Positions 2,440 to 61,900 of a stretch of DNA of 64,000 nucleotides are shown here, one piece after another (the first letter of the stretch is position 1; each line of letters starts with the position of its first letter). The notes below the pieces were generated by a model. The model worked only from the letters and a program-made list of their open reading frames with translations, ran no database searches and was not told where the DNA came from. The stretch is taken from NCBI GenBank assembly GCA_965153455.1, contig OZ234493.1:30928213-30992212 (forward strand), in the 5' to 3' direction. The position numbers and the translations under genes are program-made. The stretch is from Sphagnum compactum (taxonomy: Eukaryota).

Positions 2440-2521
2440 AATTTTTGGAAATAGAAATTTCATGCACCCAATGGGAAGGCTTAGCATCCACTCAAAGTGC
2501 CTTAGTTTTTTTTAAAAAGTT

Positions 2522-2558
<37 letters not shown>

Positions 2559-26057: not shown

Positions 26058-26122
26058 GCTACAACCACAGCAGAAAACCATTGTTTCTAAAACATGGAAT
26101 CTTGATTTGGCCAAGTTATTAC

Positions 26123-30598: not shown

Positions 30599-32215
30599 GG
30601 GCCCTTTAGGTGCATGTTGGTTCACCTCAATGGTTAAAAGAATTTTTTTTGCTTACATGTGTCTTTGCCATTTTTGGCTTTAGTGAACAGCAGATGCTTG
30701 AATTGTTTTTGGAATATTTTTCTAACCCTTCACATTTGTTAAACATTGATATAAAAATTCAACTATTTTTCATTTGTATGCATGGTCATGAATCTATACG
30801 TATTGATTACCAAACAAATGGTGGAAGAAATCCATGATAGGATGATGATATTAACATAACATTTAACACATATTTAATTTAGGACTAAATTGTTAATTTA
30901 AGCCTTTTCCCTACTCCGTGGATGGTATAAACTTTGTCTGGTGGCCACCAAATTTTTAAAATGTAACCTTATATTCAAGTAAAAACAACAATCATTCACA
31001 AAGATAACATCCACAAAAACATTTTGTCTCAAAAGAATTCATACCAATTTAACACCAATATAATATTATGCTAGTTTCAAAATTAATATAATATGATGAA
31101 AAAAATATTTTGCCTGGTGCCCACCAAGTGAAAATTGTAGGACTAAATTTTTAATTAGGACTTTTTACAACTTGGTGGATGGAATGAACTCCACTTGGTG
31201 GCCACCAAACTTAACAAATTAATGATCATTTTTTACGTGAATGTAATATTATACATTTTTTCAATTACATTATTTCCAAACAAAAACAACTTTGTAACTA
31301 ACAATTCCAAAAAGATCCATGTACACATTATGTTAAAAAAATTCATATCAACTCTAAAATAAGACTATGAATTTTCATGAGTGATTGAAAGCCAAAATGT
31401 TAATGTTCCCATTTGACATCAAGAAACTCAACCCTTTGAATCTGAAACAAGGAGAAAAACCAAATTGACAAAACTACAAATCACACTATCACACAAATTT
31501 TACTAATACTTTTCAAATATATATACACCATAAAAAATTTAAAATATAATTGAATGCATGGTGGCCACTAGGTGAAACATAAAAAATTCTAAGCTATGAG
31601 AACCAAATGACACAATTCTCATTTAAAATGATAAAAAAACACTCAATGTTTTGAATCTAATATATTGACAACATGCTAAATTTTTCACAATGGCAACTTG
31701 ATCCATCCATGTTAATCATACAATAACAAATCTATTATGTTTCAAATTCCATATATAATTAAAATAGTATTTATCCTAATGCCTAGCAAGTGATACTACA
31801 TAATAGATTATTAATTAAGAAAGTCACAAGTGAATGCTCCCAATAAACAAAATTAGAAATTCAATTTTTTGAAATACAAAGAACACACAACATACCAATA
31901 ACAACCAAATCTATGCATGCAATTCTATTATTCATTTTATAACAAATCCATTATTTTTGGGGCTTTACATACCATGTAGGAAAGTTGATGCCTAGTGGCC
32001 ACCAAAGACTATGAATTAGGTGGAACAAAATAGATTATTAATTATTACTTTTCAAGAATCACATACATGGATAAATTTTGGCAAAATAATATTTTTATTA
32101 AACCATACAACATTTTTTTTTAAAAAAAGTTTTAAAACATCAATCCAATCAATACAATGATACAAAAGACATTGAAAAATTGTAAATATAATTTAATCAA
32201 TGTCACCAACATCCT

Positions 32216-34380
32216 TCACAAATTGGTTGAAGCATTAGCAACATCAAAATTAACTTTAACTCTACTAGCATAAGTAGTAGGAATATTAATTTGACTTTTG
32301 TTTGTTGTATTTTTTCGAGTAGGAAAAGAGAAAAGAATAGCTGAAATGTCAAACCATTGTTCTGGATCTACTAAATTACATTTCCACTTCCCATTCCATC
32401 AATTTTCGTACAAATGTTGTCCATCCAGATTTGATCTTTTCTTCACAAGAACCCACCATTGAACTCTCACCATTTTAAAATATTCATTTTCTTCATCCTT
32501 GATAACATCACCCTCTGCTCTTCCAGAGAGGAACAAGATTAGGATCGTGTAGTCTCACTAACACAAAATCTCCAACATTAAGATCTCTAAATGGCATGTA
32601 TGTAGTTAAAGGTTTCATGTTCTTTGGCCCACAATAAGGAACTCAAATTGGATCTTCTAGATCAACAACGTCCATCATAGTTGACAATGAAGCCTTAACA
32701 TAGTTAGACCTCCAATTGCTTGAAAGCTAGAAGCCCTCCAAAAGAATTATACTTTGAAGCAGTAATAATCTTAACAAATGTAACAAATCATCTTCCTAAT
32801 ACTCCACATACGACTTCATCTTCATTTCATATGTGGAACTTTGCATGATGCCCACCTTCCAGAAATCCACGTACTTGGATAGTCCAAAACTTATAAACTT
32901 TTCTCTCTCCACTGACCTCAATGCATCATTGCCCCAAATTGGGTGGTATAGAATAGGGTTTAGAACTCTAGTAAGTAACTTTTGGTGAACCATTTAGATC
33001 AACTTTCCATAATCTAATTGAAGGCCCATCTATGGGACTCCACGTAAGATCTATGGGGGAAACCTTGTATTGCATCATTGGCCAACTTGCGGAATCAACA
33101 AAAAATTCTAAATAGATGCATATCAGTATGCCCTACCAACAGTTCAGGGCCATCTTTAAAACACCCTAGGACCCAAGAATTGTGGAATCTTCTAAATCAA
33201 TTGAAGAAGAACAGTCTCTCCTATGAGATCATGAAAGCTTTCATCAAATGTAATTGCTTTCCTTTTTCAACTTTTTTGACAAATAGCCAAAGCATCCATC
33301 TATATCCTCATGTGTATGGCCACCTACAAGAAATCCCAGTTTGACCTCATCAAAAACATCCCTCAACGTCAACAATAATAGAAATGCTAACAAATGTTAA
33401 TTTTTATTGTCTTTAACACAATTATCCATTTGGAGCAACAAATTTCTTGGCAAAGGCTTTGGACCAACAATTTGATTTGGGATGCGTAATTCACGTATGC
33501 AACGTAATTTCCCTTGCAACAGACATGCAAAGAATGAGTTTTGTGGGGGGTGTTCAAACAATAATTTCAATTCCAAAATTAGGACCGCCTCCAAAGTTTA
33601 GAATAGCTGTAGTAAAGACCCAATTGTGAAATTGAAATCGTTACTCATTAGAATATTGTGCATATCTCTCATCCCCATGACCTATGGCTATGCGCTATCT
33701 CCCATAAGAGTAATGCGCAATTGTCCAAGGTCAGATATCATTTTGTTGCACACTTGCAACCTTGGAAATGTAGTTTTTGCATGGTCCATCTTGTCATGAA
33801 TAATGCGTAAGAATTCATCCTTTGATTGCACTAACTTTATCCTCCAAGTATGGTATAAGTTTCTACATGATTCTTGGTGTAGGATATGTTTTTTTAGTTT
33901 TGCCTCATACTCTAGAACCTCATTGCTATTCTTTCCCAATTTGCATATCAAGTCCTTTAGGGATTCACAAATAGTGCATTTTGTAAACATAGACCCCCGC
34001 TTTTGCACATCGACATTCAAATGGTGTCTTTTTCTCGACCTGCTCATAACATATTGAGAAATACCTCCAATGTTTAATTTTTTACTTATCTGCCATCCCA
34101 CAAATACAAAAAAAACAAAGAAATAGGCTCTCCACAATAGATGTATACCTTCACATATACATTCAAAAATACATTTCAATTTCTTGAAAAATAATTTTTC
34201 ATGAAAAACACTTAGCGACCTCCAAGCGTTTGTCACCAAATAGGAACAAAAAGTGTTAGTCATTCCATATAATTTATTTGATCATTACGTTCTTTAGACT
34301 CTTCCATGTTTCACGCAAAAAACATTGCACATCTTGTCTACCATTTCCAAATATGAATCCCTCATCCATATCTTGTTAAG
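32216..34380 (-). pseudogene. Decayed DDD-type transposase (Sola-like / DUF7869-type) with C-terminal SH3/Tudor-like domain
   Basis: Motifs in order: FTKCTICESLK...LKKHILHQ, IIHDKMDHAKTTFPRL, LLLQMDNCVKDNKN, KLGFL..GHTHEDI/DGCFGYLSKKL, then DLNVGDFVLVRLHDP..VRVQWWV..WNGKWKC..EQWFDISAIL, ending at TGA (32216-32218). Many frameshifts. Possible further 5' exons up to ~37509. Confidence 0.7.
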
Positions 34381-34479
34381 CTAAAAACAAATGGAATACA
34401 ACATTAGATCAAGGATTAGAGTTCTTGCCATAACATGTGTTCTACAACCCACCCATTACAAGCTACCATTACTACACAT

Positions 34480-35406
34480 AAACACGTGGAGGTCGCCATG
34501 TATCTCTGTGCCCAATATCAATGCGCAGAAATGCCAAGCGGCCACCAAGTGTCTCTTCGCCCAACATAGTTGCACAAAAATGCTTGGCGATCGCCAAACA
34601 TCTCTACGCCCAATATCTATGCATTGAAACACCCGGTGGTAGCTAGGCATCCCTATGCCCAATATAACTGCGCATATTCATTCTTTTGGATTCCCGTTTT
34701 TTTTAATCCAAAAAGCATTTAGAATCGTAGAAAACGCATGGTGGTCGCTAAGCGTTTTGTATGATTTATAACCCAGAGAACGCCTGGTGACCACCAGGCA
34801 TTTTTTACAATTTATGATCTAGAAAATGCCTTGTGGCATCAAGTCCTTTTCTAAAATTACCAATCCAAAAAACTTTTAATGGCTACCAAGTGTTTTTTAC
34901 CATTTCTAATCCTGAAAACTCTCGGTGGCCACCATTTCCGATTCAAAAAACATTTGGCGACAACCAAAAGTTTTTTAGCATTTTTTATCTAGAAAATGTT
35001 TGGCAGCCACCAAGCATTTTCTAGCATTTTCAATCTAGAAAATGCCTGGTGGACGCCATGCGTTATATAACATTTTCCATCCAGAAAATGCTTGGCAATT
35101 GCCAAGCATATTTTAGAATTTTTGATCCAGAAATCGCCTTGTGGCCACCAAGCGTTTTTTAGCATTTTCCATCCAAAAAACACCTAGTGGCCGCTAGGCA
35201 ATTTCTACCATTTTTTATCCAAAAAATGCCTAGTAGTTTCTAGGCATTTTCTAGGATTTCCCATCCAAAAAATGCTTAACGGTCGCTAGGTGTTTTTTTA
35301 CCATTTTTTTATCAAGAAAACGCCTAATAGTTGCCGGGCATTTTCTACCATTTTTTATCCAAAAAAACCTGGTGGCCACCAGGTGTTTTCTAACATTTCC
35401 CATCCA
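34480..35406. repeat. Palindrome arrays A1 (4 units x 49 bp, ~34480-34675) and A2 (~15 units x 46 bp, ~34730-35406)
   Basis: Each unit carries a decayed copy of GAAAATGCCTGGCGGCCGCCAGGCATTTTC followed by a related linker, e.g. GAAAATGTTTGGCAGCCACCAAGCATTTTCTAGCATTTTCAATCTA (46 nt). Confidence 0.9.
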
Positions 35407-38064
35407 GAAAAGGTGGTATGGTAGTGGCAGTTTAAATTTTCCATTGTGCAAACCTCATGCCTTCATTTATTACTAAATGGATAGCTATGATTGTGTATAG
35501 GATAAGTGAAGAAAACCATACCTGAATGTTGTTAGGCACATCAATTTAAAGTTGTTTCATCTTCTTCCATTAGAAACTTGTCCTCACTGACTTGGGCAGA
35601 TTCATGTTGGAGTCCTTGGGTTAGATCAGCACCATAAACCTTCTTTGAAGCCACATTTGGTGCAAGGGCCATCATTGCCTTTTTTGCCTCCCTTCAAACA
35701 TCTGTAGTCATAAACACTTATGACATCAAGTAAGCAAAAACAAGAATGTTCATGGAATGCAAATTACTTATGGCCATTTTAGTCTTGTAGGACATTAGGA
35801 AGAAATCAGAAAATTGGTGGGTATTCCATGACCTATAGTAAATGAAACATTAGTTCTAACAAATTAGAGTTTTCAGTGTGTGGCTTGCATAATTGAATGG
35901 CATTCCTATTTTGGTCCTTGACAAAGAGCATTACATCAAAAACTAACTCATACACCCATGTTCAAAAGAATTCCATGATTGTGGTAAAGAATTTGTAACT
36001 CAATAGCAAATAACAAGGTAGCAGGTAGTGGATATATAGGCAATTACAACAAGTAATATTCAAGTTCTTTTTTATCATGTATGTGCATGCAACAATCCTT
36101 AACGGTAATCACAAAAGTCACAACAACATAAAGTAATAGAATGGCTTGCATACCTTCAATGTGTGTTGTATTCTTCGAAACATTTCCATTGCTTGAATTA
36201 CCATGACATGTAAGTATGTGCGAGCTGTGTGACCACATTTCCAGCATTCCCACAATTGCATATGGATATTAATCAAACTAGCCCTATAAAGACATCAACA
36301 AATTGCAACTACAAATTAGATTAAAATATTCTAGATCTTCATTCACAAACATGTTTACCACCTTTTAACACTTTTAAACCCTAAAATAGTGCACATGTCT
36401 TTGAGTTCATAACCATTGAAGACAAATGCCATTGAGGAACATGTCACCTATACACACAAAATGAATACACTTATCTAGTTATGTATTTTGGAGATGTGGG
36501 AAACAACCTAAATAATGATCATTAGAATTGGTTATTATCATTTCTACACCAGGATGGAAAACACCCACACCTCCCATTCTTGCTTGTAATCACACCAAAA
36601 CTTTTACACCATGTTAAGCTCCAACAAAACATTATTTTTCCTTGTTGTTGAACCCTTTGGCCTCCAAAAAAAGGTGCAAGCATGGATGAAACATCAAAGT
36701 GGGAAAACTTCTATGCTTCTTATCCCCAATTGTTCTTATTAAAGAAAAAATTATTTTGGCAGTTGTTTTATATAAACAAGTGGAAAGATCACCAATGGTT
36801 GTGTGCTCCTAACACTCGATACAGGCTTCAAGAATTGCACTTGTTGCTTTTACCTCAAAGTTTGTGAAAAGAAATCCAAGTTCTTCCACATTTGGTGCAA
36901 GCTAAATCATGTCTATTTGTGGAGGTAGCTTCTCCTTCTTTTCTGCCTCTAATCGAAGCTATGAGTCTCGCTTTAGCTCCAACGGCACAAATTTTCCTAT
37001 ATCAAGACCCAATTTTCCAAGTGTGAATTTGAATACTTGTTACAACAATCCTACTACTTTCTCTTTAACAACCACCAGCTATTTAGATTGCTTGCAAAAA
37101 TGCAAACCTAATGATCAAGATTTGAGTTCAATCGATGCAGATAAGTGTGCCCTAAAAACAAATGCAAATGCAACACAAAATTTTTTTAAAAAAAAGTTAA
37201 TACAAAGATTCGAAGATTACCTAAATCAAGATCTAATCATACCTTCATTGTCTTTGCACCTAATGATTTCACAATTCCAATTTGACCTATACATGCATGA
37301 TTTGACAATCTATGATTGCGCTCGGAGAAAGTTCCCTTCACGCAATCTTCATCATCTTTACAAGACAAATTTATAGACAAAAAATGACATAGAGTTGTGA
37401 GCTTGTTGCAGCAACTCCTCAAGTCTAATTTGAATTGTTTATGACAACCATCTTGACGGGTAAAAGGCAATGGCGGTCGAAGCTTGAAGGTAGGCTCAAA
37501 CACATCCATATTTGAACAATAGGCACCAAAATTTTGGCGAGCACAATGGAGCTTTAATGCAAGCTTTGTGAACCAAAATAATGGTAATGGCTCATCAAAT
37601 CTTTAGTAGCAAGGCTCGCAAAGCAATGAGTTGAAAAAAATTAATGTTATGTTGTTGCTTCAACCTTGAAGCGAAATGAAAAGTTTACAAATGGGAGCAA
37701 CAGGGATTCGGGACAAGCACTAGACTATCCCTAACTTTGATTAGATGATCTTATGATTTCATCCACATCCAATCTAATATTGTAAAAAAATATTGAATCC
37801 AAGTCTAATTGCTAAGATTTTAGAGTGGGTATTGGATTTATTTCACTTGATTTTTGACTAAACAGCTAAATTTCTATTTTAGACCTTCAATTTTCATTCT
37901 ACATTAGGTTCAATGCATTTATAATGTTAATCATTATATTCAAATTTTGCCCATGTAATGTATACCCCAAATTTGCAATTAACCTGAAATTACATATAAT
38001 TTTACATGAAAATGTAACCTTGCCTTTCCTTAAACAAAAGAAAAAATTTTATCTTTAAGGATGT

Positions 38065-38350
38065 CTTTACCTACCATCTACCTACCTATGTCCTACCGAC
38101 CTACCTACCTACCTACCTACCATCTATCTATTATGTCCTACTTATTTACCTACCTACCTATTTACTTACCTATTGTCTACTTACCTATGTCCCACCTACC
38201 TACCTACTTACTTTCCTACCATCTATCTACCTATGTCTCACCTACCTACCTACCTATTCACCTACCATTTACCTACCTATGGCCTACCTACCTATTTACC
38301 TACCTATGTCCTACCTACCTATTATTAAGCTACCTATTTATCTACCTACA
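38065..38350. repeat. (CCTA)n / CTACCTATGTC microsatellite-like tract
   Basis: Seen directly; explains the spurious PTYL-rich ORF 38061..38369. Confidence 0.9.
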
Positions 38351-40052
38351 TATGAAGGCAATTTTTTGATTTACCTATAGTTTACATAAATAGGTATGAA
38401 CATTTGAAAACATAGGTAGGTAGGCATGGGCACCTACCTATCTACTTAGTTAGGTACATACTAATCTTACTTATGAAAAATTTTGAAATTCAAATGTTGT
38501 TATACACATTGACAAAAAAATTCATGAAAATTCAAGGATACATGTTAAATCCATTGGAATCACATTGTTTTACAAAATGGTAGGATGGTTTGATTTAGAT
38601 TTTTGAATAATAAATGGGTATTTAATTCTATGAATTTAGTTTTAAAACATACCTTTGAATTATTTGATGATTACTCAATATTTCATAACAAATTATTTCT
38701 TAACATATATTTAAGTGTAGTTTACATAGTAAAATGTCAATAGTCAGTTATTATTTAATTATCAAATATTTTACTAAATTGTTTGCGTTCATGAACTCAA
38801 AATCAATATTAAATTAAAAATAAAAATTTAATTAATTTATCATTCAAAGATACACTAATCCTTGATAAATAATTGAAAGGCAGTAAAATACTTATTAAGT
38901 GGTCCATATTTGAGATATTTATTTAATGTTTCTAAAGTTTAATGTATAGAGTTTAGATTTAGGGTTTATGGTTTAAAGATGAATTATAAGGTTTATTGTT
39001 GAAAGTTGATTTATAGGGTTGAATAAATAGTTACATAAGTTTCTTCCATTGTTATGGTAATATTTCATATTGGATTTTGTTTAGAAATCATTGTTGTACT
39101 AATGTGTCATAATTCATAATATAAATGAAATTTGCATCTAGATCAACTAAATCATTGTAAATCTATAAATTGTATGATATTTGTTTATTTATATGTTGTC
39201 TAAGTTGTAGCTATGTATAGATGTATATGTATGTATGGATGTGTGTTTGTATATGTTTGTATATATATGTATGTGGATGTGTGTTTGTGTTTATTATTGT
39301 TTATATGTATTTTTTTAAAAATGTGTTGAAAAGAATACATAAAGTTGTAGGTCATCACATGTACATCATAGATATTTTGGTGTGTGGTACATATGACAAT
39401 TTTCAATATTATAATTGTTTGGATGTGTGTTGAAAAAAAATACATAAAATTGTAAGTCATCACATGTATATCATAGATATTTTAGTATGTGATACATTTT
39501 TCTGTGTGTGTTTTTTGTGCGAGTGTGAATGTAAGTGTTTATATTGTTTTGTGTGGGTGTTTCGTGTGGATGCTTTGTGTGGATATTATGTTTGTATGTT
39601 TTTTGAAAACAAATTCAATATAGTTCAAATATAAATTTCAAACTAAAATAAATAGTCATTGTTTAATTAGTTAATTGGTTTCTATATGTTTATATATATG
39701 TTTGTTTTCAACACAGAAAAATGGAATGCAATAGTATATATAATTTTTCTGTGCATACTGTTGCATTTTATTTTTTTGTGTTGAAGGCATTTTACCAAAC
39801 AAAGATCAAAATTGTTACATTATAACTTAATTTCTTATTGAATTTTTCAAAACTTTGCCTATTTTTGAAGTTAACCTCTTAATGGCCACCATGTCATAAC
39901 TGTTTGTGTTGTTGTAGGTGAATCATATTTTGGTTTGGATGTGGTGTACCATTCAATGTATTTTTATTTTTTAAGGTTTAGGGGGTTTGAGGTTAATATG
40001 GTTTAAGGTTTTTGTGTTTAAGGTTGTAGATTTTTTCTTAAGAACAACCTTA

Positions 40053-40291
40053 CAACCTGGCGCACATGTTGCAATGATAGCTGAAGATAAATTATAAATT
40101 GAATTGCATTATTGAGTTAAAAACAAATTTAATTGTGTAAATGTTCTATTTCTCATAGTTATTGTTAAATTTTTTTTATCAGCAACAGTTTAGGAAAATA
40201 AAACATTTGTGCAATTTGATTAGTTTTTAACTCAACATGTAATCGAATCTATGATTTTTTTAGCCAACATTGCAACATTTGCGCCATGTTG
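40053..40291. mobile_element. 239-bp Tourist/PIF-Harbinger-like foldback MITE
   Basis: Left CAACCTGGCGCACATGTTGCAATG; reverse complement of right CAACATGGCGCAAATGTTGCAATG. Arms pair for ~110 bp. TTA on both flanks (40050-40052, 40292-40294). Confidence 0.85.
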
Positions 40292-42659
40292 TTATTTTCA
40301 TCATTAAACTACTCATCATCATCATCATTAGCTCATGATTTCAACTCATCCCCTAGAGAAGAAGTTAGCTCACAACTTTGAAGTTTTTTCTTTCAAAGTT
40401 TGATATCATATAGCACTAGACTTATTATACAATGTGGGTCTTGCACTTTATTTTTCAATTCAAATCTTGTTGTTGTTGCAATTAATCATGTTGTTGTTAC
40501 ATATTGTTGTTTTTGAATTTTATTTTTTCCTTCATGAATAGATTTGAACACATACCTAGAAGGCTAAATTTTGTTTTTTTTTTTTTTTTCAGCTTTTCCT
40601 TTTGGTCCTGGTGTCCACCATGTGATTTATAATTGAAGTTTTGAATAAATATAACATTGTCAAGTTATTGTTTGGATTTTTGGACTTTTGTAAAGTTTTA
40701 AATTAATTAAATATGTGTTATTTCACTTGGATACTAGGAGATTAAAACAAACTGAATGGAAAAAGGATTGAAATTTGGCTTGAAAATTGGTGCACATAGT
40801 ATTACCCCTTCAATTTTATAATATCTTAATAGACCCTCTCATCCACACTTTTCACCCCCTTTAATTTTAAAACTATGCAAATTTTATGGAATTTTACAAA
40901 ATGGCTATTATTATTAACATTTGCCGAAATCCATGGTATGAAATACTTTCATATCTTATCCTTGGCTAGTTTAAATATTATTAAAATATTATTCCATTTA
41001 AATTAAGGGTCAACTAGATGGAGCATGTAATAGTTATGAATTTTTTTTTTCAAGCCCTAAGGAATATTCTGAAATTATAACTTTTATTCATTTTGGCACA
41101 TAAAAATTATTTAATATAATTGTGTAATAATATATTTTGACACATGCAAAATAAAATTTGCACTCCATAGTTATAATTTGATTTTGTTTTGTGGTATATC
41201 TTTTGTTAATGGAAATTTGACCATAAAAAATGTCCACTATGATGTCGTTACATAGCAATGACATGGCAATTTACATGTGAATGATAGGGTCATATGTGGT
41301 TGCCATGAAGGCCCAATGTCATGCACATGGCAATGGGCATGCCCTAAGTACCTTTTTGTGTAGCTAGGTTTCATGAATTCTAGAAACCCTAATAACATAT
41401 TAGCCCATATTTGCTATAATGCTAGTGACAAATCAATGATTCGACTCAACATTAGTTATATAATAAATTTAATATCTTTTAAGTCACCTTGTTTTTGGGC
41501 TTGCCTTTGTCTTTTCATGTTAAGTTTTAAGCTAGTATCCTTAAGGTCACTCAAGTAAGGGACCAACATTCCAAATTCAACACAAGATGGAAACCATCCC
41601 TCTTTATCCCTTTTCTCCCACATTGATGTTCTTTGAAATATAGTAGAGTTTAGCCTACATGGTTAATATCTCATATTTGACTCAATATTTTGATGTGAAA
41701 GCCCAATTAATGTGTAGTAGCTTGTCAATCATGGTTAATATATTGTTTTGATGTAGATGCCCATTATTTTGGTGGGTGCCCCTTAATTCACGAATATTGG
41801 TCAAGTGTTTTCATCTATAATCGAGTATTAAAAAACAGTGGTTTTTTCTTTATCCATTTTCATGCACATTGTGGTGTTAAATCATATTTGAAAAAAAGTT
41901 GTAAATAAGTTATCCTTCAACTTAATACCCTTCAAAATGCAAGAACTCATTACAACTTTTCACTGCTACAACTACTTTTCAGTGAAAGATGGTCCCCTAC
42001 TTTCAATTCATTAGTTGTCTTGAACTCTTTCCATCCATTCCTTTTCTCTTTCACAACCTCTTTCTTTCCGTGTCTCTTTTTCATCTCAGGATTACTCATT
42101 TCATCTTAGGGTTATTTGGTGAAGCCAAACTCGATAGGTAGGGCATTGAGGACTCTGTGAACGCGAATGGGAGAAGATATCACGGTGAAGTCGACCATTT
42201 GACACCACAAACAAGAGCACTCAACATTGCGAAGGAGAACATTCGACACTGCGAAGGAGAGCACTCAACAACGCTCCCCCAACTCCTCCACTATTAGGTA
42301 AGACTTTCAATTTCCAATCTTGGTAATTTAGGGTTTTGAGAACCAAATCTCTAAAGACTTTTTCACAATTCTTTTTTTCACCACGCACACACCACAAACA
42401 AGAAAAACACTCTTCCTTTCCGTGCTCCTTTGTTCCCTTTACTGTGTAGAACAACAATGACAAAGAACTCATGTGCATGTGTTTTGCCTCCAAAAATAGA
42501 CCTAGAAAATTGCAACTACAACTATTCTTTCCATTCTGTAGACTCTAGAAAACAAGATTAAACATAATTCACAATTTAAGACACATCTAGCACCATTTTC
42601 AAATTTCTCCCAATCTCAATTGTTTGCCCAACTCCACACCCCATTTACATCATTTCTTG

Positions 42660-43010
42660 CATGTACTATGTGTGTTTGTACCTCATTCTCTTTGCACTTG
42701 TATCTGGGTGTAATTGTGCCTTTGTGTGTGTTTATTTGTGTCTATGTGTCTCTGTGCATGTGTGTGTGTTTATCCATGTGTGTCTATGCATGTTTGTGTG
42801 TCCATGTGTCCGTATGTGTTTGTGTGGGCCTATTTGTATCTATGTGTCTCTATGTTTCTATGTGTCGATCTATCCCTGTGTGTCTATGCATGTTTGTGAG
42901 TCCATGTGTGTCCATACGTGTCTATGTGTGTTTATGTGTTTGTGTGCGTCAATGTGTCAGCGTCTTTATGTGTCTTGAATTCTTGTATCCATTCATTTGT
43001 GTATCTATGA
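42660..43010. repeat. TG-rich low-complexity tract (TGTGTCTATG-like); similar tract at 39200-39600
   Basis: Seen directly; explains the C/V-rich ORFs. Confidence 0.85.
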
Positions 43011-43698
43011 AGGATTGTCAGGCTGTTTGAATGTCCTTGTGATTTCTTATCATTATACTTCTACTTGTGAATCATATCTGTGTGTATTATGTGTGTGCTT
43101 ACTTGTTTGTGTCTATTAAACTCATCAATCTATGTCTACAATTCCTTATGTCCTTATATTTCCTCTTATATTTCATTACTGTACACATTCTTATCACACA
43201 TCTTTAGTACATGTGTCAAGCAATGTCAAAAATATTTCCATTAACATTTCCCATGTTAATGTCTATCAAAGTCCATCAATTGCTATAGATGGTTTTAAGT
43301 GTTATCCATCTCTAGTTCTCTTTTATCCGTGCTAGTATAAATCTCAATTTCTGTAATCCAATCATGTACTTTGTGTCTTGGTTTCTACACTAGTGGGTAT
43401 ACTATTATGAAATAATGCAGCTTTCAACATGAGTACATGCATTTGACTACATCCATAGCAATCATAGTTGTAACTACATTTCTCCACATGATTACATGCC
43501 AACTTTTTGTATTATATTCATTTTTTTTTTCATTATTTCTGTACACAATCTAGATTTCTGGGAAGCAGATTCAAAGTGTTTCATGAATAGTGAAAAAAAG
43601 GCATTAGGAAAACAAACTTGAAAAAATGGCGACAAAAGCACAATAAGTTCTCTAACACTTTTCAATTATATATGTGATAACAATGAGATGATCTTCGT

Positions 43699-47700: not shown

Positions 47701-49079
47701 CGCTGAGCCAACATTGTTCTTGGGCTTCCGCGGTGCCGGGGGCGAGAGCGTCCAAGGTGTAAAGACGGGTGTAGTAGTCAGTGATAAAATGAGTGAGGTC
47801 GCGTTGGCCCGTGATGGTTCCGGATTCAGTTTCTAGCTCTCTCAGGAGGGCCTTCTTTTTCCCTATGCGATGGAAATCGTAAAAGGCTTTGGAACATGTG
47901 TCTCCATACCTGAGCCACTTGGCTGAAAAGAGATGGCGGTTGCACGCCACGGAATCCTGGAAGACTTCCGCGAGCTTTCCCTGAGCGTCGGAGAGGATGT
48001 CTCTCACCTCCATGTTTGACGGGTTTCTTTGAAGCAGGATTTCTGCCAGCTGTATTTTTTTGGCGTGTGTCCTCATGCGCATGCCCTGAGCACGTTTTTT
48101 TCTCTTGCAAGACACGTGTTACTGAGCATGACTCTCCCGATTATCGCCTCGAGCCAGGTCGGCCAATTGTAGTCGTTGATGCGGCGCGACTGATCCCTGT
48201 CCCATGCTTCCAACATCTCTTGCTTACTCTTGTCTTCGCTCAGCAAGGAGGTGTCGAAAAAGCGCGGAGGGTTGCCCGGGGGGGGGGGGGGTGTTGCCCC
48301 CACACCGTGATGATTAGCGGCGAGTGGTCTGAGAGTTTTCTTACGGACGCCGCGGTCTCTATTCTGCCTCCCCTTTCGTCTATGTCTTGTGAGATCATGA
48401 ATTTGTCAATTTGCGACACGGCCGCACGCGCGCTTAATCTCCCATTGTCATAGGTGAATTCCTTTTTTGACATCTTTCGGAAGCTATCAAGCCGCCACGC
48501 GTCGACCAGTCCATAGTGCAAGGTCATGTGATGCCAGGAGGCTGCCTCCCTCCTGTGCGTTTGTCTCTCGCCGGAGGTGCTTCTGCGCTCGGTTTTTTCA
48601 AGGTGGTTGAAGTCGCCTCCCACGATGATGTGGTTCGAAGTGAATTCGGCTTGGATTGTCTTCCGCCAGAGTGGGGCTCTGTCGTTGGAAGAGCGTGGGG
48701 CGTAGATATTGACGATGGTTAGGGACCCGTTGTCGAAGGATTGGAGCGTGATGAATTGCGCGTGTCCTTCCATTAGGATTTCGTGTTCTTTGACGAGTGG
48801 AGCGATCACCTTGTCGACCAGAATTGTTGTGCCAGCACTAGTCCTTTGCGAGCGGCCCATGGGTATTCTTTCGTTCCAGAAGGAGGCACCTCTCCAAAAC
48901 TCGATTCCACGGGCGGAGTTCTGAATTCCTTCCTTCCCGAGGTGGTGTTCTTGGATGAGGAGGATTTAGGGGGGGGCGGAGAGTGAGGCTAGCTAGGCCT
49001 TGATTTCTTTCGACTTGGGCGAGTCGCCCCTTATGCCCCTGACATTGAGGGAGGCCAGAGTTAGCGGTTTCTCAATCAT
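44710..49079 (-). pseudogene. LINE ORF2: APE endonuclease, reverse transcriptase and C-terminal zinc-binding region; disrupted
   Basis: MIEKPLTLASLNVRGIRG start at 49079, NIYAP, GGDFN, LSDHSPL (APE). KAPGHNG, NWRPITLL, LLLDFEKAFDRIEW, QGC.L and IFADDT (RT). CKVC..ESPQHCL (zf-RVT-like). Stops and frameshifts include an 8-bp GCACCCTA duplication in the QGCPL motif (~47011-47040). Confidence 0.93.
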
Positions 49080-51945: not shown

Positions 51946-52397
51946 CTAAAAGCACTTAGAAATTGATCAAGAAAAGGTGCATTGTGCTTAGGAATGAGCA
52001 AGTCTCTCTGATACGCACCAAGGGAGCGGAGAGCCCAACGCGGCGAGCCGCAGAGAATGCGGAGTAACGCAGAGAATACTATATGGGGGAAGGTGGTGGC
52101 TTCCCCCGAGTCCGGGCCGTGGGAGTCATGTGAGTCCAGGGTTGCCCGTGGCTTGTCCTAGCACTGAAAGTGCTTCCGAATGTGAACTAACCAACTTGTT
52201 GGTTAGTTTGATGCAGGTTCGCGTAACTAAGTAAAGCTTGTCCCTCGCCCTAGTCTAATCCCGGAGCTTCAGCATGCCCCTCTACCCCTTTTAGTGCTGG
52301 AAGCTAAGAGCGTGCCCCAAGTTCCAAACAATTCCGTTGTTTGACTTCTTTGGACCCAACTTGGGTCTAACGAGGAACTTGGGAGCGCGTCACTCCC

Positions 52398-55300
52398 CCA
52401 TTGATGAAGAAGGCTGTTGACGAATATTTCGGCATGCACGATATGTATTTAGAAGTTGAGCTTGGAATATGGTTGCTCACTTTAAAAGTAATTGTTTGGG
52501 TGGCAAGGCTATTGAACCAACTTGATACATTCATTGAGTTCCATTTGATCAAGAATGGAAACCAAGATTCAATGAAGAAAATGCCCATCCAAGATTTGAA
52601 GGCATGGGCTCATGATTTAGACATGGTCGTCATCATGGTAGAGGATCCATGGAAGAAGCAATTGGCAGGCCTCATCTATTCAATAAATAGAATCAACAAT
52701 GAACTTGCATTGACATTGGTCCGAAAATATTTTTGTGAAAAACATGAAGGACAAAACATCACACAACGTTGTCATTAAATGGAATGAGTTCCTCGAGCTT
52801 TTGAAGATTGAACAAGATGAATTGTAAAATGAGTCTCAAAGGGGCTCAAACCATACACTCACAAACTTTGAAGGATCTAGTGGCCTTCGCCCAACAAAAA
52901 AATAGAAAAAGGAGAAAACAGAATAGGATAAAAAAGAGAAGATCTTGACAAAACTAGTTATTAAGAAAGAAGATAAAGGATTCAACACGGTAGAATGCCG
53001 ACTTGTCGATGACACGTTGGGCAATGAGTTTTTGGGTTGTTTTCCTTTTGGAAATGACTCGCTTCCAGGTGTTTCCATTGATGTTCATCATTTCAAGAGG
53101 GCACCTCCCAACATTGTTTATCATCCACTCTCAAATATCCACAAGGATGAATTTTTTTAAAAAACCACACGACATAATAAGTTTGACACCAAAGTGTCCA
53201 TTTTTGCGATCCCTAAGGACTTGCATAATGCTAACCATATCACTCCTCACAAACTGAAAAAGTGGGAGGATATTCAGGATAATCAATTTCTAATTGTTGG
53301 CGAGCAACACACAATTGTTGTTATGAAGGTGTGTTATTTACATCCCTAATTCCTTGTATTTCCTGTTTTATGGTGTGTAATGAGAATTTCAAAATAATAA
53401 CTTGTAGATCACCCCAATATGAGGCCCTAAGTTTGAGAGATCTACAACTACTTTCAAATTATTGTAGTATGGGACATAGACTTCGTGAAGATTTACAAGC
53501 TTTCCAAAATATTAAACAACAAGGATTGTGACCTCAACACAAAGCCTTCATACAAGGAAAATCTTGCACATGCTCAAAAGATATGGGAGGCATACTAGAG
53601 GCCTTGTCTAAATTTGGATGCATTTCTTCGACATACTTAGGAATACAAGGTATTAATACCAAATGATTAATTTCCATACAAAGTTGTGATATTGTATGTT
53701 TTCAATCACATTTCTAAGTTTTGTTGCGTTTACGAAATGTGTTACAGAAATTTGAAGAAACACTCAAGCTTGTTTTGAATGTTGAAACAATAAAGGAGTG
53801 CATGAATATCCTTCTATTGACAGATGCAATCTTCCAACTATGGCAGAGTGTCTTCCTTGAATGGGAGAAGTGCAACATCCTTGATGGATCTAGAGATGTG
53901 CTAGCATGTCCGCCAAAACCAATTGGAAAATCTGCTTTCGGTTGTTTAGTTAACCTCAAGGAAAAACAACTCAAGAAGTTAGCTAGGGGGCTACTTTCAA
54001 AAACAATAACATTCAAAGAGCGTCCAGTGAAAGGAAGGAGGCCTAACCTTAAATCCATGTACGAGTTCACAAGGATGCTTAAGTGGAAGGCTATGATTCG
54101 GAACGAAATTATGATTCATTTTGGACATCCAAAGCCAAGTGCCAATAATCAGAAATCATATTCGGATGATGAATGGCACGCATTGAATGACAAGCACAAG
54201 CTTGACAAGATGTTGTTCTCAATTTTGGATTCAGAATTGAATGATGATTTTTACTTGAAAAAGCATAGGCTCAACCCCTCAGACAAGGCCCCACCTATAG
54301 GATTTAAGTGGGGTTTGGAGAAATGGATCCAAAATGGAACTTTGAAGGACAATGCAATGAAGGCAATTTTGTTGGACACTCATTGCAAGTATGATAGAGT
54401 CGAGAACATGTCAGGTATGTTGGATGTTATTGACAAGGAATGTTGTGCATCGTTTTTTATGGACAACACAACAAGGACCATCACTGTCATTTGTACAATT
54501 CGCAACACGAAAGACGTTCCAACAGTTTGGAAGGGCTTGATTGGGAGTCCTTTCTTCTAGGGCTCCTGAACATGAGGGCCATGTTCAAAGTCATTGTCTC
54601 CATTTGCGACCGCGAGTCCTTCAAGAGCCTATTGACTACCATGTGCAAGTCAACTTTTGATACAAAAATTTAATTTGAGTTTGGCCAATACATGGCAAGA
54701 TCAGTAGAGGTTCCAAGTTCTTCAATGATATTATTGAGCATTTCCATGTTAATGTTTGCTTATTTGTTTCCTTTTAAAATTGGAACAAATGTGTGTGCCG
54801 AAATTTTGGGAAACAAAAAATTATCGACATTAGTGGAATGCCCAAATTTTTCTTTTCTGGAAGATCAATAGTTATATCGATAAGAGGTTTTTCCAGAAGC
54901 TGTTTCATAAATCCTTTAGCCAGTAATCTTGAGCGGGATGGTTTGTTTGGGTATCTTTGGTGGAGAAATTCCCACATATGTTTGTCTAGTAAGTCCAACA
55001 CATGGATCTTGACTTCATTCCTGGAATATTGTTTTTCCAGAAATTCGTTCCATTAGTAAGATTATTTTTCTGATAGGCCGTTTCTTCTTCAGGAAAATAA
55101 ATGTAACGTGTTGGAACTCATTCCTCATGACCTAGAAGGAAACTGGTGCGAGATAATGGCATTGGTATGTCTTCGCATGTTAACTGGTGTCACGACTAGG
55201 AACATGGGAATACAACCACTGAAGCCTATGTTAATGCTTACCCAAGGAGCACAAACTTCTAATGCAGAGGAGGAAGATGAACGAGATGTCCTCATCCCTA

Positions 55301-55533
55301 CTGAAGAAGGTGGAGCTAATTTGTCCCCAATGTTGGACAACTTAAGCCCATCGAAGGTGGACAAAAAGAAAGTTGGTTATGTCATAAGGGGAAGTAATAA
55401 AAGAAAGGCATCCAGTAGTAAGACTCAAGTTCCAAAAAAGAAAGGTCATTCACGAGGGAGCAATCCAAAAAGTGTTGATGTTCAAGCTGCGAGAGAACAA
55501 GAGGTTAGTGAGGAACTCATTGACCATGAGTAA
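52398..55533 (+). pseudogene. Decayed multi-exon gene with ParB/Srx-like motif; 5' part lies left of the solo LTR (~43630-44185)
   Basis: The frame reads across the LTR site (LVTSTLP|PLMKKAVDEYFG). Further on, SIDVHHFKRAPPNIVYHPLS...VSIFAIPK...WEDIQDNQFLIVGEQHTIVVMK is followed by a GT donor at ~53329. A 279-aa ORF (53721..54560) and a basic NLS-like tail (NKRKASSSKTQVPKKKG) follow. Confidence 0.5.
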
Positions 55534-55943
55534 GAGGATCCTTCAGAGGACAAGGATGTGTTCACATTGATCAAGACATCCGTCGTGAATATGTTAATAA
55601 CTTCCTCATTTAGGCCGAATGTGGCGACTTTAGATGAGGACAATATCAAAAAAGCTAGTGAGGAATTGCGATGTGCTAACCTCCCCGTAGTTCCTTTGAG
55701 TTTGTATAGTTTTGTATGTCAAATACAAGATCCAGTAAAGAAAACGGGTTATTGATTAAATTCAATAGCTTTTAATCATTTTGACACCTTGTACATTCCT
55801 TTAATCATTTAATCATTTGATAAACTTGCAGAACAACTTTATTAAAATGTCTAATTTTATTACAAGATACCGTTGTATATTTGTTTTTCACTACATTTAA
55901 TTTGATTATCATGTTGAGGCCCTTAGTCATGTGTTTTTGCATT

Positions 55944-56298
55944 TATCGCTTAGTAGTCGTTGGAAGATATTTTGTGCATTGATCACTTGGCGGTCACTAG
56001 GTGATTATCCCTCCGTCAATAGCCTGGCAATCACTAGGCCACTATTTGTCTCTTGATCACTTGGCGGCCATTAGGTGATTGGTTATACATTGATCACTTG
56101 GTGGCCACTAGGCGATCGTTTTTCCGTTGATAGCCTTGTGACTTTAGGTGTTTTTGTTCATTGATCACCTAGCGATCGCCAGGTGATTGTCTATCCTTCG
56201 GTCGCCTAACGATCACTAAGTGATTCTTTGTCCTTCGATCGCTTGGTGATCTCCTTGCAATTGGGACTCCTATGATCGTTTGGCGGCCGCCAGGAGAT
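55944..56298. repeat. Palindrome array C (~10 units x 37 bp)
   Basis: 26-bp decayed palindrome GATCGCCTGGCGGCCGCCAGGCGATC separated by ~11-nt variable linkers (ATCCCTCCGTC, ATTTGTCTCTT, GGTTATACATT, GTTTTTCCGTT...). Confidence 0.9.
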
Positions 56299-56652
56299 CG
56301 TGTTTCAATTGTGCATTTGTCCAACATTCTTTTGCCAACATTAAATATTGTCTTTTCAATTATGATTTTTGCAATGATCACTTGGGTGCACCAAATATTT
56401 GTTACTAAAATGATCATTTTGTTGAGTTTAATAATGTTTTAATTTCTATTGCTAATACATCCTTTTTATTCTTGGGTAAGATTTGTGCCTCACACGTGGA
56501 AAGGGTGTCGATTTCCTCTCTCGATAGCATAGGCGGAAGGATAATACAATCAAAGGTGGGTTTTGTGGATTCTTTCCTTTGCGATTGATATGATGGAAAT
56601 GTAGATTGAACCATTAGTTAATGTCCATTTTGTATTCACTTTTCATGTTTCG

Positions 56653-57803
56653 ATGGAATTAATTCATGTTCGCTCTAATGAACCCAATGTTGAAGATGCA
56701 GCACCAAATGATGCAGAGTGGGGATATTATTGTCCTAGACTGGTGGACCATTCAGAATTGAAGCCCCTTGAGGTATTGACATCCTCTGGCCTTGAAATTG
56801 AAATGCGATTGGCCACAGCTAGTGGCACAAAAGCTTTGCATGATGTGGGCCTTCTTCTGTTTTCTCCATTTATGGAGCTTGGCATTTTGCCAGAAAGTGT
56901 AAAGACTTTTGATTTTGCCAATTATAGGTTCCAGGAAATTACAAGCACTTCTAGTTTTGCCGATGAAGCTCTACATTTGGAGCCTGTTTTGCAAAAGATT
57001 CCAAGGATTTCAAGTTGAGTGAATGTCAGTTGCCAAGATGATGTAACGACTTTAGGTTTTCCCAAGGGTGATGTGCATGAAATGACAATGACTTCTAGTT
57101 TTCCTGCACATACTACGTAGGAAAAATGTTCTTTGTTGGAGGTGAGTGACTATCATTTGATTTTTGACTTGAATGGTGTTTTCATTGCTATGGGTGAGGG
57201 TCAAACTAGAACTCGCCTAATGGTTTTGAGGCCTAGTATTAAGTAATTGTGTTTACTTGTGTAAAAAAATTTATGGTGTACATATGGTCTTCAGCAATGA
57301 ACAGAAACTTTTTGGGGCAATTGGATATTATCATCGAGAAAACTAGCATTCACCTTTCATCTTGTAGGATAATCCAGTCATTCTACTTTAGAAATGATCA
57401 CTTCTTGCTTAAGAAGCTAAACAAGCCAATTTCCCATAAAAACCTTATCAATTTCTTTGTTCAATTTATTGGTATGTCATTTGAGAATACTTTGTTGATA
57501 GACAATACACCTCACAAGAATTTGTTTAATCCTCCTTTTAGTGCCATTTTTTTAAAAACATTTTATGGGTCGCATAGTCACTCTAATTACCTACTCCAAA
57601 CCATTCTTCTTCATTTGGAATCTTTGCATTCATTCGGAATGCATGTTTATAAATTTGTAGAGTTGAATCCTTTTAGTAGCATTATAGATGATGTGCTTCC
57701 TGATGACCCTCGATATGCAAAATTGATTGCTCTGTGTTCTGTAGAATGTGATGAAATGTTTTATAACAGAATGAAATCAAGATCTCTAAATAAAAAGAAA
57801 TGA
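56653..57803 (+). pseudogene. Decayed gene ending in an FCP1/NIF-like HAD phosphatase-fold domain (copy 1)
   Basis: The frame of ORF 56653..57018 continues through stops into YHLIFDLNGVF...VLRPS, then after a frameshift into CVKKFMVYIWSSAMNRN and ENTLLIDNTPHKNLFNP. Confidence 0.7.
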
Positions 57804-58389
57804 ACTATTTTATTTATTTATTATGGAATCATTATGTATGGATGGTTTACTAACTTGAATTACAATGGGTGCATGCTTTATTTTTATCAATTGTTTTCTT
57901 GCCTAATGTACTAGAGTCCAATGTAAGGGTTGTTCCACATGACTTTCTCTCCCACAAGCATCCACTAATTCTAATTTGATAATTGGGCATTTTGCAAACA
58001 TATTGTTAGTTTTTCATAAAGTGTTTTAAAATTTCAATGCAAATGGCCTAGTGGCCACTAGACACCTCATGCACATAGTTCAATAGTTCCCATGTATTTC
58101 TAACTTTTTTGAATATCATTTTTTTCCATCTATTGTTAGTTTGCCTAATGGTTGTTCGGTGCTTTCTTGCACAATGTTATCCATATATTTAACTTAGAAA
58201 AATATTTATTGTTAGCACATGGACATTTCGCTCTCAATTTATTATTGTAAATGTTGATAGCACATTATCCTTTCCCACATGTTTAATTCATTTTGCTGAA
58301 CGGTTTTTTTGTTGTTTTAGTTCAATGTTTCATCCAAGTCGATTGCAATGGTCAAAGGCAGTTCAATGCGTTTGCATCTACATTCATCA

Positions 58390-58960
58390 TATTTTGAACC
58401 TAAAAATTGTTGATTCTGAACATTAATGTTGTGTTGTGTTATTTCCCACCTTCAGCTGTTCTGCAAGGAAATGCTAAAGTGTTTGGGAAAAATGATTACA
58501 AGACCAAAGTGGAAGTCAAAGTTGGAGTGGAAAATTTTATGAGTAAGGCATTTCAAAAGTTTCATATTACAATTTGGTCTTGTATGAAACTTAAGGATGT
58601 ATTGGAAGTTTTTCCCATGCTCATGCTTAAAAGTTTCTTGTATCGATTCGTTTTCATTTGGGGATGTGAATAATGTTCCAAAACGTCTGGTGAAATTTCA
58701 CCTTGGTCCCATTATTATTTAAAAGATTTGAAACGTGTTTATTATGTTTGTTGTGGGAAAGATTATGGAAAGGAGGATCAAACATTGTTGATTGATGATG
58801 AACCTAGCAAGGCCCTTCGGAATCTAAAATGGATTGGGCTTTTTCTTGAATCATTCAGGGGATAGATGTTGTCAAAGAATAAGGTGCAATGGTTGGACCT
58901 ACAATCCTGTTTGTGGCCACCCTTGGTTGGATTGCCCTTGGCCAAAACAATTTGAATTCA
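58390..58960 (+). pseudogene. Second decayed FCP1/NIF-like HAD domain
   Basis: KLLILNINVVLC, FQKFHITIWSCM, IWGCE*C, YLKDLKRVY and QTLLIDDEPSKALRN in one frame with stops. Confidence 0.7.
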
Positions 58961-61900
58961 TTGGATTAGGATTAACGTGATTTATGGGATGAATACACAT
59001 TTCCTATATTGTTGCCTATAATTATTTTAGCATTAAGGACATGTGGCATGATTTTCTTATGATCATATGTGTGTTGTTCACTTGACTTTGAAAACCATTC
59101 ATATTATCTTAGTAAAGTCCCTCCTTGTCTTTTGCATGCCATGTGTATATATGTAAAGTTTACGTACTTGGAAGCAAATTTGCAATCAGTAATGCACAAT
59201 TATGATAGTTGTTTTGCACAATTTGAATGCATTCCTAATTCCCATGCACTCACTTCCCAAAATAAAAAACTTATATTACATTTGTAAAAGCACAAAATAA
59301 TGACATTAATACCAAAATCATGAACGTCCAAACAAATGCAATACATATTCAAGTGTACCCCTTTTGCTATCATCAAACATGAAAGATGCATGATGTCAAT
59401 GATGAGTTTCATCACCAAAGCCTTGGACGTCCAACATGTTAGTTCAAGCATATGCACATATTTCATCAAACGTATGCACTCTGGTGGAAAACCAATGTAA
59501 ATTTATCTTTGATGATTTAGTTTAAAAGTTTAAACCAAGATGATTTTTTTAAAAAGTGTACCATTTAGGAAGAAAAGGATCTAGTCTTTATTGCAATCCT
59601 TCTTTTTTTTCTATATTTTGATTCACATCAAAACTAATGAATCAAAAAATGTTAAATATTTCATAGGTATCATATTTTAGACCACTAAAATCTAAAATTG
59701 TATCATAATCACTCATAATGTATCTTTACATAATAAAAAAAACTCCCTAAGAAAACATAAAAATGATGATGTTGCATCACAATTTTAATACACCTTAAAA
59801 AAATTTGGACCCACCAATGATTTTTAACTTAAAACATCCCTTCCCGATATGTAAACCATAAACCATTTAATTAGCTGGTAGCATGACACATGCAGATGCT
59901 ACAAAGGTTTTCTTCAAAAACTTTTGCAAAATTTGCCATATTTTGAGGGAAAACTGTCATCACATTTAGACAATCCATTCATGGAGGTTGCCAATACAAA
60001 GTGGGGTTTTGAAAAAATAGAAAATAAAAATTATAATCCATCTAGGACAGTTGTTATTTAATGCTAATTAATTATGGGGATGCTTGCCAATGGACCTACT
60101 TGAGCCTTGGCCGATTTAACATTTTTCACCTTGAGTGCTTGTCAATATTCCAATACTTAAGCATTTAGAAATCTGGGGATATTGCAAAATCCAAGAAATT
60201 ATTGCAAGAAAACTAAATAAAACTTGCAAAAGTATTTAACTTATTCCAAGGTATCCCTTAATTATCAAATGGTTTATAACTCATATAACTCCCATTAAAG
60301 TTGTTCATTCTCTTTAGCTAACTTTCATGCTAGTTATATACTACCGAATGTGATATACAATAGTACCATGGCACCTTTGACACATCTATCACATGTCTGT
60401 CAAATAATTAATTAGTTTTGGAAATTTCTGAAAATAATAAAATTAATGTCGAAGCTGCCAAAGTAATAGGGTATTATATGAAATCTCCCTTATTGCATCC
60501 CTTGATGATGAGCAGGGTTTATTTTTAAGGATTTTGTGATGTAGGCAAGGTGGCGACCATCCAGAAACTAATTTAGCCAATTCTGGCTACATGCCAGATA
60601 TGAAAGTAGAAAAAAACTAGGATCCTTCTATATTCTTGGCTACCTATTGGAACTTATTGTAAAAATCTGGCGATTTGGACTTTTTTGTTTTCGAAATATG
60701 GCGAATTTGGACCATTTTTCCCATGGAGAATCCTTTCTATTGGTCGAAATCACATTTTTATTGGCGAATTTTTGCAAAAATTCACCAATAAAAAACATAA
60801 TGATGACGAGCAATCATTCTCTTAGCTCACAAAAATATATATATGGCTGTCTTTTGAGCATAGGTCGAAGGTCGACCTACTCATGTAAAATGGAGCAATT
60901 AAACAAGAGAAAATGTTGTGGGCGTCTAAGGTTTCCTGATATTGTGAAGTGAATGTGGATTGCTACAAAGCTGCTACCAGGTGTGACTGCATTCTTTGCT
61001 GGAGTTGTGAAAGAAAATGTCTTTTAGCCAAACAAAACAATTGACTATAGCCAAGGTGGTAAAGAACTGCCATATTTATGACACAATAAAAAGAACTCCC
61101 CAGTAATACCTAAGAATTGTGTTTTGTTCCACCCAAACCAGAACAAGGGCTGTGTCACACTGTGGCCTTGCCATTTACATTAAAAAGTATCATAAGGCAA
61201 TTCAAGTATTTCACCATGCAAAAACATAATCTTCAAAAAAACCCTCTAAAAGAAACCAAAATCCTTCAAGATATTAGAACTCTAAAACTAATCTCAAGTT
61301 TCAACACAAGCCAAAATATCATTTGTCAAAAATCTTCATATAAAAGTAGACCTACTACCTAGGGGCCTATAAAAATCCCTTAAGCTACTATATACTCTAT
61401 AATGAATCTAAACACAATATCGTTGCCTTGGTAGGCAAGACCAACAACAAACATAATGACAATTAGTGCAGTCATAACCTTGAGAGCATCACCCACAAAG
61501 TATCATAGCATCACCTTTAGTAGGTAACCAACCGCGGGCAAAATACCTGACAAAGGAGGATGGAACAGGAGGGGTTCCACGAAATAAGAAAGCATACTTG
61601 ACAACAAACTATGAAACAACAAATGAAAATACAACCCTCCGCTGTAGAAAACTTTCTTTGATAGTGGAGTCTGCATCTTACTTCCATACCATACCAATGA
61701 TCTTCTGTGCCCAAGTGGTTATCTCAATAGCTGACAAACCAAACCAAATGACATACTGATGCTATACCAAACCAGACATCTATTCTGAAGCAAGTTGAAG
61801 CCAAGATTCCCATAATATTGAAACATATGCAGTAAAAGTTTTAGCATATGAAACATTGCATATGAAACATTCACTTACATATGAAGGTAAGCAGACAAAA

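Follow-up and report, generated by a model that had tools for sequence, protein, structure and literature searches.

Probable remains of a very large DNA transposon, most likely of a Sola-like family, with one palindrome at its ends and before its genes in Sphagnum compactum

Sola elements are, to our knowledge, among the least studied DNA transposons, and we know of little work on them in plants. In En/Spm (CACTA) elements, short repeats that bind the protein TnpA occupy both subterminal regions, with an overlap into the promoter, and TnpA both aids transposition and regulates expression. For Sola1, 4-bp target-site duplications of the form AWWT are described as a hallmark (PMC3845634), and Sola1 of the moss Physcomitrella has an entry in table 1 of a review (PMC9033089). 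Chimeric Sola2 elements combine a constant transposase part with variable passenger parts, terminal inverted repeats (TIRs) of 12-21 bp and duplications of ATAT, AAAT or ATTT (PMC3627910). In VANDAL elements with their VANC proteins, tandem arrays of the target motif lie beside the element's own genes (PMC5735166), and the abstract of a preprint reports promoter activation by a Mutator transposase (10.64898/2026.08.24.746577). The subject of this work is a block at positions 30865-58962 of a window of 64,000 nucleotides, the whole stretch of Sphagnum compactum DNA that was analysed (assembly GCA_965153455.1, contig OZ234493.1, positions 30,928,213 to 30,992,212, forward strand), which we compare with these systems.

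With moderate confidence, the block is regarded as an old, worn-out relic, decayed by methylation, from a family of very large cut-and-paste DNA transposons in a bryophyte-type genome. The window itself has the composition of AT-rich eukaryotic DNA. The family comprises an RNase-H-like transposase of the DUF7869 type and two passenger genes, one without recognisable relatives, called gene A here, and one with tandem NIF/FCP1-like domains, called the NIF gene. The transposon family is real and old, and it is most likely Sola-like. Relatives of the passenger module were sought by scanning metagenome contigs of a related host with a five-sequence alignment; 104 were found and 80 loci fetched, each extending up to 10 kb on either side of gene A. 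After near-identical assemblies had been merged, these loci formed 47 groups, and the module is thus present in at least 47 distinct copies. The window DNA is about 70-88% identical to the family copies. Fifteen copies cover more than 5.5 kb of window 52391-58962 with 71-88% identity to the majority consensus (90% for the window copy), and this divergence indicates that the family is old and that every copy is decayed. Throughout these 15 copies, the order of array, gene A, array and tandem NIF gene is constant.

A sign of mobility comes from a common right terminus (...AAATTAATTAAATATGTGTT or ...AGTCCTAAATTAATTAAATATGTGTT), which is found in 16 copies and beyond which the flank is unrelated in each. 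A preliminary description of this DNA had proposed a mobile element and not a block of host genes, and the 47 groups and the 16 copies with one terminus bear this out. The opposite explanation, a decayed host gene cluster that is single-copy and syntenic and shares a regulatory palindrome, could draw on one copy, L003, which has a single-copy flank in common with the window and looks like its counterpart in a related species. It is contradicted by the TIRs and a transposase with a recognised domain, and it counts as already refuted by the 47 distinct copies and the unrelated flanks of the 16 copies with identical terminus; its probability is close to nil. At the protein level, a full HMMER search of representative proteins with the read-through frame of window 52002-55600, which is mostly gene A, gave 329 matches. 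The 150 listed of these are all fragments of 50-218 aa with 31-78% identity, labelled as hypothetical where the source gives names, on contigs of up to 144 kb. A search of Rfam gave no matches.

The block has the following features, given in window coordinates:

30861-30864, unstranded: ATTT, left copy of a putative 4-bp target-site duplication; ATTT occurs again at 40720-40723
30865-30886, plus strand: left TIR with exact AACACATATTTAATT, shorter by a 4-bp deletion than the 26-bp TIR of the family
30937-32006, unstranded: left subterminal region with five dispersed palindromes found by palindrome scan; homology to other copies starts at 30865
32203-34380, minus strand: DUF7869 transposase pseudogene interrupted by 24 in-frame stops, with a C-x2-C...H motif upstream, from Pfam and homologue alignment
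34527-35411, unstranded: transposase-side palindrome arrays, at 34527-34650 (three units of about 49 bp) and 34719-35411 (about 15 units of 46 bp)
35412-40593, unstranded: non-coding, copy-variable interior that contains (TACC)n-like repeats and, at 40052-40292, a foldback of 240 bp
40594-40719, minus strand: right-end module with the palindrome at 40607 and an exact 15-bp right TIR at 40705-40719, followed by ATTT; an internal TIR if the block is one element
40720-42042, unstranded: spacer, of which 40720-41552 is common with the copy L014, where it also stands behind a right TIR
42043-44184, plus strand: conserved region upstream of the passenger genes, with a 45-bp palindrome array at its end (43698-44130)
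44185-52390, unstranded: nested insertion of 8,206 bp, private to the window copy and flanked by CACTCC on both sides
52391-55752, plus strand: gene A pseudogene of no recognisable family, the "ParB-like" gene of the preliminary description
55934-56300, unstranded: palindrome array of 37-bp units upstream of the NIF gene, from repeat and palindrome scans
56605-58962, plus strand: pseudogene whose two NIF/FCP1-like domains lie at about 57157-57800 and 58404-58961; it breaks off at 58962

The TIR of the family is 26 bp long (AACACATATTTAATTAATTTAGGACT), and a search with this 26-mer gave one match against 0.00 expected. As for the four bases deleted from the left TIR, TTAA is present after 30873 in nine contigs from run X1, which account for 466 of 821 depth units, and restores the 26-mer, which then mirrors the right ends of other copies; many paralogues carry these four bases. 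Within the window, the 15-mer AACACATATTTAATT occurs only at 30865 on the plus strand and at 40705-40719 on the minus strand. The reverse complement of the terminus common to the 16 copies is the sequence with which the homology of the window starts at 30865, and this terminus lies about 1.1 kb past the position equivalent to window 58962. Compared with the true right ends of other copies, the right-end module at 40594-40719 shows 73-79% identity. Short terminal inverted repeats, as expected for Sola, are seen as an exact 15-mer at both ends and as the same terminus in 16 copies. At each end, a palindrome lies 70-100 bp inside, with more copies within about 1 kb. ATTT stands outside both window TIRs (30865 and 40719), which are the sole TIR pair seen, a 4-bp match in AT-rich DNA being only weakly significant.

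On the right side, 23 of the 29 high-scoring segment pairs that end nearby stop at exactly 58962 (assemblies unmerged). Beyond this position, the other copies remain alike among themselves for about 1.1 kb more and the window diverges from all of them; therefore, the window copy is broken at 58962. The outer limits first suggested for the element, 30880 and 59000, differ by no more than 40 bp from the boundaries found here (30865 and 58962). Directly left of the left TIR, window 28840-30759 reaches about 60-165 times the single-copy depth in contigs and contains a unit resembling a miniature inverted-repeat transposable element, with 35-bp inverted arms at 29951-29985 and 30564-30598.

For the transposase, six minus-strand frames over 32.0-34.5 kb and 35.4-37.8 kb were scanned with Pfam, and one of them matches DUF7869 (PF25273) with an E-value of 4.2e-25 and 88.9 bits against a cut-off of 26. 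This frame has 24 stops in 637 codons and is in register with intact homologues. The motifs HDKMD, Q.DN....NKN and GHTHEDID, which represent three acidic motifs, are invariant in all eight aligned sequences. Both the decayed minus-strand transposase noticed in the preliminary description and its placement among DUF7869-type proteins hold, given the score above the gathering cut-off, the in-frame stops and the invariant motifs. Fifteen intact relatives of 642-1074 aa are available, all carrying PF25273, and homologues score 141-153 bits. The closest named ones are from Physcomitrium patens (a DUF7869 protein of 989 aa, 41% identity) and Riccia, and the Atlas clusters comprise streptophytes and molluscs. 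A homologue search with transposase residues 120-700 found none, and a narrower region gave matches. No relative was found when viral contigs were scanned with the transposase alignment. The corresponding scan of prokaryote contigs returned 12 distant DUF7869 relatives (L081-L092; 26-47% identity) in metagenome-assembled bacterial genome bins; contigs of 589 and 733 kb carry two of these relatives. In the neighbourhoods of these 12 relatives, no homologue of gene A or the NIF gene lies beside them; they could be eukaryotic contamination or something else.

The interior at 35412-40593 shows homology only to the loci L059, L060 and L058 and partly L050, and the six frames on both strands of 35.4-38.0 kb have no Pfam match. 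In its foldback at 40052-40292, one pair of inverted arms is nested in another; the arms are 34 nt long with 85% complementarity and 40 nt long with 83%. Two degenerate arrays lie inside the element, a (TACC)n-like one at 38068-38348 and a (TGTGTCTA)n-like one at 42725-42958, the latter conserved in about 20 other loci.

A single palindrome with the core CCTGGYGGCCRCCAGG recurs across the block. Searching for CCTRGYGGCCRCYAGG with at most three mismatches gave 30 matches against 0.46 expected, a number reached by none of 100 shuffles. All matches except one at 23483 are located between 30937 and 58062 (29 of 30), including one at 45280 inside a nested long interspersed nuclear element (LINE). 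The seven singletons listed previously were all recovered (30937, 31113, 31194, 31557, 31991, 40607 and 58047) and so were the four arrays, with periods of about 49, 46, 45 and 37 bp; a further weak singleton lies at 39878. Each array is placed directly upstream of a gene: two before the 5' end of the transposase, one before gene A and one before the NIF gene. The array of 45-bp units at 43698-44130 ends about 70 bp before the start of gene A. Inside the arrays, the palindrome is extended to about 30 bp with a common core and array-specific flanks (GAGAAACGCC...GGCGTTTCTC before gene A, TGATCGCC...GGCGATT before the NIF gene). The central CpGs have mostly decayed to TpG or CpA (118 TG versus 32 CG among 183 sites), and the ancestral palindrome of 16-18 bp was about GCCTGGCGGCCGCCAGGC. 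Its placement is conserved in 20 copies: there are 94 occurrences upstream of gene A, whereas gene A itself has none; the interval between the two genes has 42, the NIF gene 16 and the terminal 1.4 kb 39.

Gene A has three conserved coding blocks that are common to 15-25 copies. Its earlier label as "ParB-like" would imply a ParB/Srx-type protein for which the arrays act as parS- or sopC-like loading sites, and hence a bacterial-style DNA-clamping or partition module. Formally, and only formally, units of 37-49 bp that each contain a palindrome of 16-18 bp resemble the sopC array of the F plasmid, and gene A has a conserved FLIIGGQHTI where ParB-like proteins carry a Gly-rich motif. The arginine motif of ParB/Srx-type proteins, however, is GxxR, and the gene A motif reads GGQH(T/I) or GRQH(T/I) without an Arg after the His in all 14 rows that have it. 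Moreover, none of 17 copies matches any ParB-type Pfam family at E<=5, the intact 189-aa open reading frame (ORF) of L015 has no Pfam match at E<=1, and profile searches of PDB sequences with the alignments A3 and A4, the latter comprising the 17 copies, gave no matches at E<=10. The label was abandoned for these reasons, and a ParB-type module is a very improbable explanation. Three window frames of 52.0-55.6 kb had no Pfam match at E<=0.01 either, and a search for longer homologues of gene A found none. The best score in the ESM Atlas was 0.77, which is below a useful level, and AlphaFold2 models with a mean predicted local distance difference test score of 42.9 (alignment A5) and 40.8 (A3) were too poor for a fold search.

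The tandem FCP1-like domains named in the preliminary description could be verified. One of nine plus-strand frames of the window matches NIF (PF03031) in two stretches (E=3.5e-12, 46.7 bits versus 21.8), and each domain was also found separately on open ORFs of relatives: domain 1 in L002 (8.6e-12, 45.5 bits) and domain 2 in L009 (8.4e-10, 39.0 bits). The palindrome at 58047 lies between the two domains. FCP1-SCP phosphatases have the catalytic motif DxDx(T/V). In domain 1, the Asp at the third position is absent from all 16 aligned rows, eight of which read DLNG; the rows of domain 2 read (N/S/G/I)-x-N-G, with (N/S)-V-N-G as the typical form, and none has the second Asp. In the window copy, D/N-x-N-G replaces DxDx in both domains. 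Since this catalytic residue is missing, the NIF protein is probably not an active phosphatase; it is likely to be inactive or altered in this function.

In other copies, among them L003, window 44184 is contiguous with 52391, so 44185-52390 is an insertion private to the window copy. It consists of a repeat of about 740 bp (44186-44654 and 52068-52342) that carries a 7.4-kb LINE on the minus strand. An 8.2-kb insertion had been suspected from the start, and the direct junction in other copies together with the CACTCC flanks agrees with it. The GC-rich repeat of about 740 bp was inserted independently at four places in family copies, the other sites being L002:12753-13491, L012:12669-13359 and L050:14318-15025. 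Short proteins of about 180 aa correspond to its frames; these are the hits to residues 20-130 of the gene A read-through query.

Whether the block is one element or two neighbours has to be judged from the arrangement of the copies. We are inclined, somewhat more than not, to see the mobile unit as a composite of about 21 kb, which would begin with the left TIR at 30865 and end in a distal right TIR that this copy has lost past 58962. The internal right TIR at 40719 would then be the leftover of a 9.9-kb transposase element set beside the passenger segment. No left-type TIR was found in the 15-18 kb before the right TIR in nine copies with 10 kb of upstream sequence, and the unit must therefore be longer than 15 kb. 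In L014, the passenger unit is preceded by the internal right TIR of the window and the following 800 bp, and this copy also has a distal right TIR, whose flank differs. This indicates that the internal TIR was already part of the copied unit. Furthermore, the side and strand of the transposase relative to gene A are the same in L003 and L059. A contig joint from 40719 to 41384 was left out of account, its shorter side being only 29 letters long. Among the contigs listed, for which a minority of the joints were shown, none connects 30864 with 40720 as an empty site would, and this speaks for neither model.

Alternatively, two members of the family may lie next to each other, with 30865-40719 as a complete 9.9-kb transposase element and 42043-58962 as a fragment of a separate non-autonomous passenger element that has the same TIRs and is moved in trans. 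This is a possible explanation to which we give a smaller but substantial weight. It would account for the exact TIR pair with ATTT on both sides and for a transposase near only two of the 47 gene A groups, and in most copies a different 3.9-kb segment, X, stands upstream of the passenger unit; an inverted left-end module precedes this segment in four copies. The contig depths point in the same direction. Copy number was estimated roughly as summed contig depth at >=80% likeness in run X1, where the single-copy depth is about 40. The left end and the transposase reach about 18-29x, 35.2-37.8 kb about 5-8x and 42.3-44.2 kb about 1x. This contrast in organism A (the transposase part against 42280-44184) is a weak measure, since a contig threshold of 80% undercounts the passenger region, which is only 72-78% identical between copies. 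The two-neighbour explanation is also opposed by the nine passenger units without a left TIR within 15-18 kb of the right TIR and by L014, in which the internal TIR and the following sequence stand upstream of its own passenger unit.

Several observations nevertheless weigh against the interpretation of the block as a single Sola-like composite. No copy contains the three genes and both termini together, the loci reaching 10 kb from gene A. The 9.9-kb stretch at 30865-40719 looks self-contained, with its exact TIR pair and ATTT on both sides. Co-occurrence of the modules, proposed in the preliminary description, stood only in part: the order of array, gene A, array and NIF gene is fixed in the 15 copies, but only two of the 47 groups (L003 and L059) have a transposase within 10 kb of gene A, a range that conceals most of what would tell the two models apart. 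Of these two, L003 lacks the 8.2-kb insertion and continues past the break at 58962. Its positions 1-4749 are 86-91% identical to the left flank of the element at window 24996-29623; part of this flank is single-copy in the source species, and the identity of the single-copy flank is about 91%. Because of this shared flank, L003 probably represents the orthologous locus of a related species and is hence not independent evidence. In L059, the transposase part is 85% window-like and gene A only 69%, as in a divergent subfamily, and the locus looks more like a juxtaposition than a simple internal deletion. An array of the first transposase-side type is present upstream of gene A in L050 and L015, with no transposase beside it, and the sequence between the arrays is mosaic and varies from copy to copy. 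With regard to the superfamily, only three of the 16 right flanks fit AWWT, and the literature search found no mention of DUF7869 or PF25273. Finally, that any protein binds the palindrome is something we infer.

The arrays of L050 and L015 were also considered as a link between transposase and gene A; this was rejected, as no transposase homology adjoins them.

For the composite element, the conserved layout of TIRs, subterminal palindromes and promoter-proximal arrays suggests a possible mode of control. The palindromes may be bound by a dimeric protein that the element encodes, for which the Cys/His N-terminal region of the transposase and gene A are candidates. At the ends, they could help to assemble the transposition complex by bringing both ends together. 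In the promoter arrays, they might couple the expression or anti-silencing of all three genes to the binding protein, in a manner modelled on the TnpA motifs of En/Spm and the VANC target arrays of VANDAL. A more specific version of this model, which is speculative and rather unlikely, is that gene A is an orphan DNA-binding gene whose product recognises the 18-bp palindrome in the ends and the three promoter arrays. It may act with the catalytically dead FCP1-like pair, which would engage RNA polymerase II or the silencing machinery, and so switch on the 21-kb element or shield it from methylation. If true, this would be a counterpart of VANC borne by a Sola element and independently evolved in bryophytes.

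A family that had previously surfaced in gene calls as dozens of short "hypothetical proteins" now has termini, a structure and a set of passengers. Intact relatives in a model moss, should they exist, would make it possible to test directly how a cut-and-paste element of such size coordinates several genes and copes with silencing. The literature search returned neither a Sola-type nor any plant element that pairs such a transposase with FCP1-like domains or with promoter arrays of a palindrome that is also present in its termini.

Membership of the family in the Sola superfamily is most likely on the basis of our analysis, and its features appear to fit the published traits of Sola1 and Sola2. 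With the Sola2-Fanzor elements of dictyostelids and the Sola1 of Physcomitrella it has in common an RNase-H-like transposase with three acidic motifs. It also shares short TIRs (15-26 bp here, 12-21 bp in PMC3627910) and perhaps an AT-rich 4-bp duplication (putatively ATTT here; ATAT, AAAT or ATTT in PMC3627910 and AWWT in PMC3845634). The combination of a constant transposase part with variable passengers, described for Sola2-Fanzor in PMC3627910, is counted as shared as well. This likeness is one of structural features, and there are differences: the passengers here are a tandem NIF/FCP1-like gene and an orphan gene instead of Fanzor, the size is about 21 kb, a palindrome array precedes every gene, and there is an additional internal TIR. 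VANDAL21, which is Mutator-like, belongs to another superfamily. No homologue of VANC is present here, the 16-18-bp palindrome is also located in both subterminal regions, and any such role of the arrays is predicted from sequence. En/Spm shares with the present family the repeated short motifs in both subterminal regions and in promoters, the binding of an accessory protein being a feature of En/Spm. It differs in superfamily, termini and length of the target-site duplication, and the family described here has long, regular arrays upstream of three separate genes.

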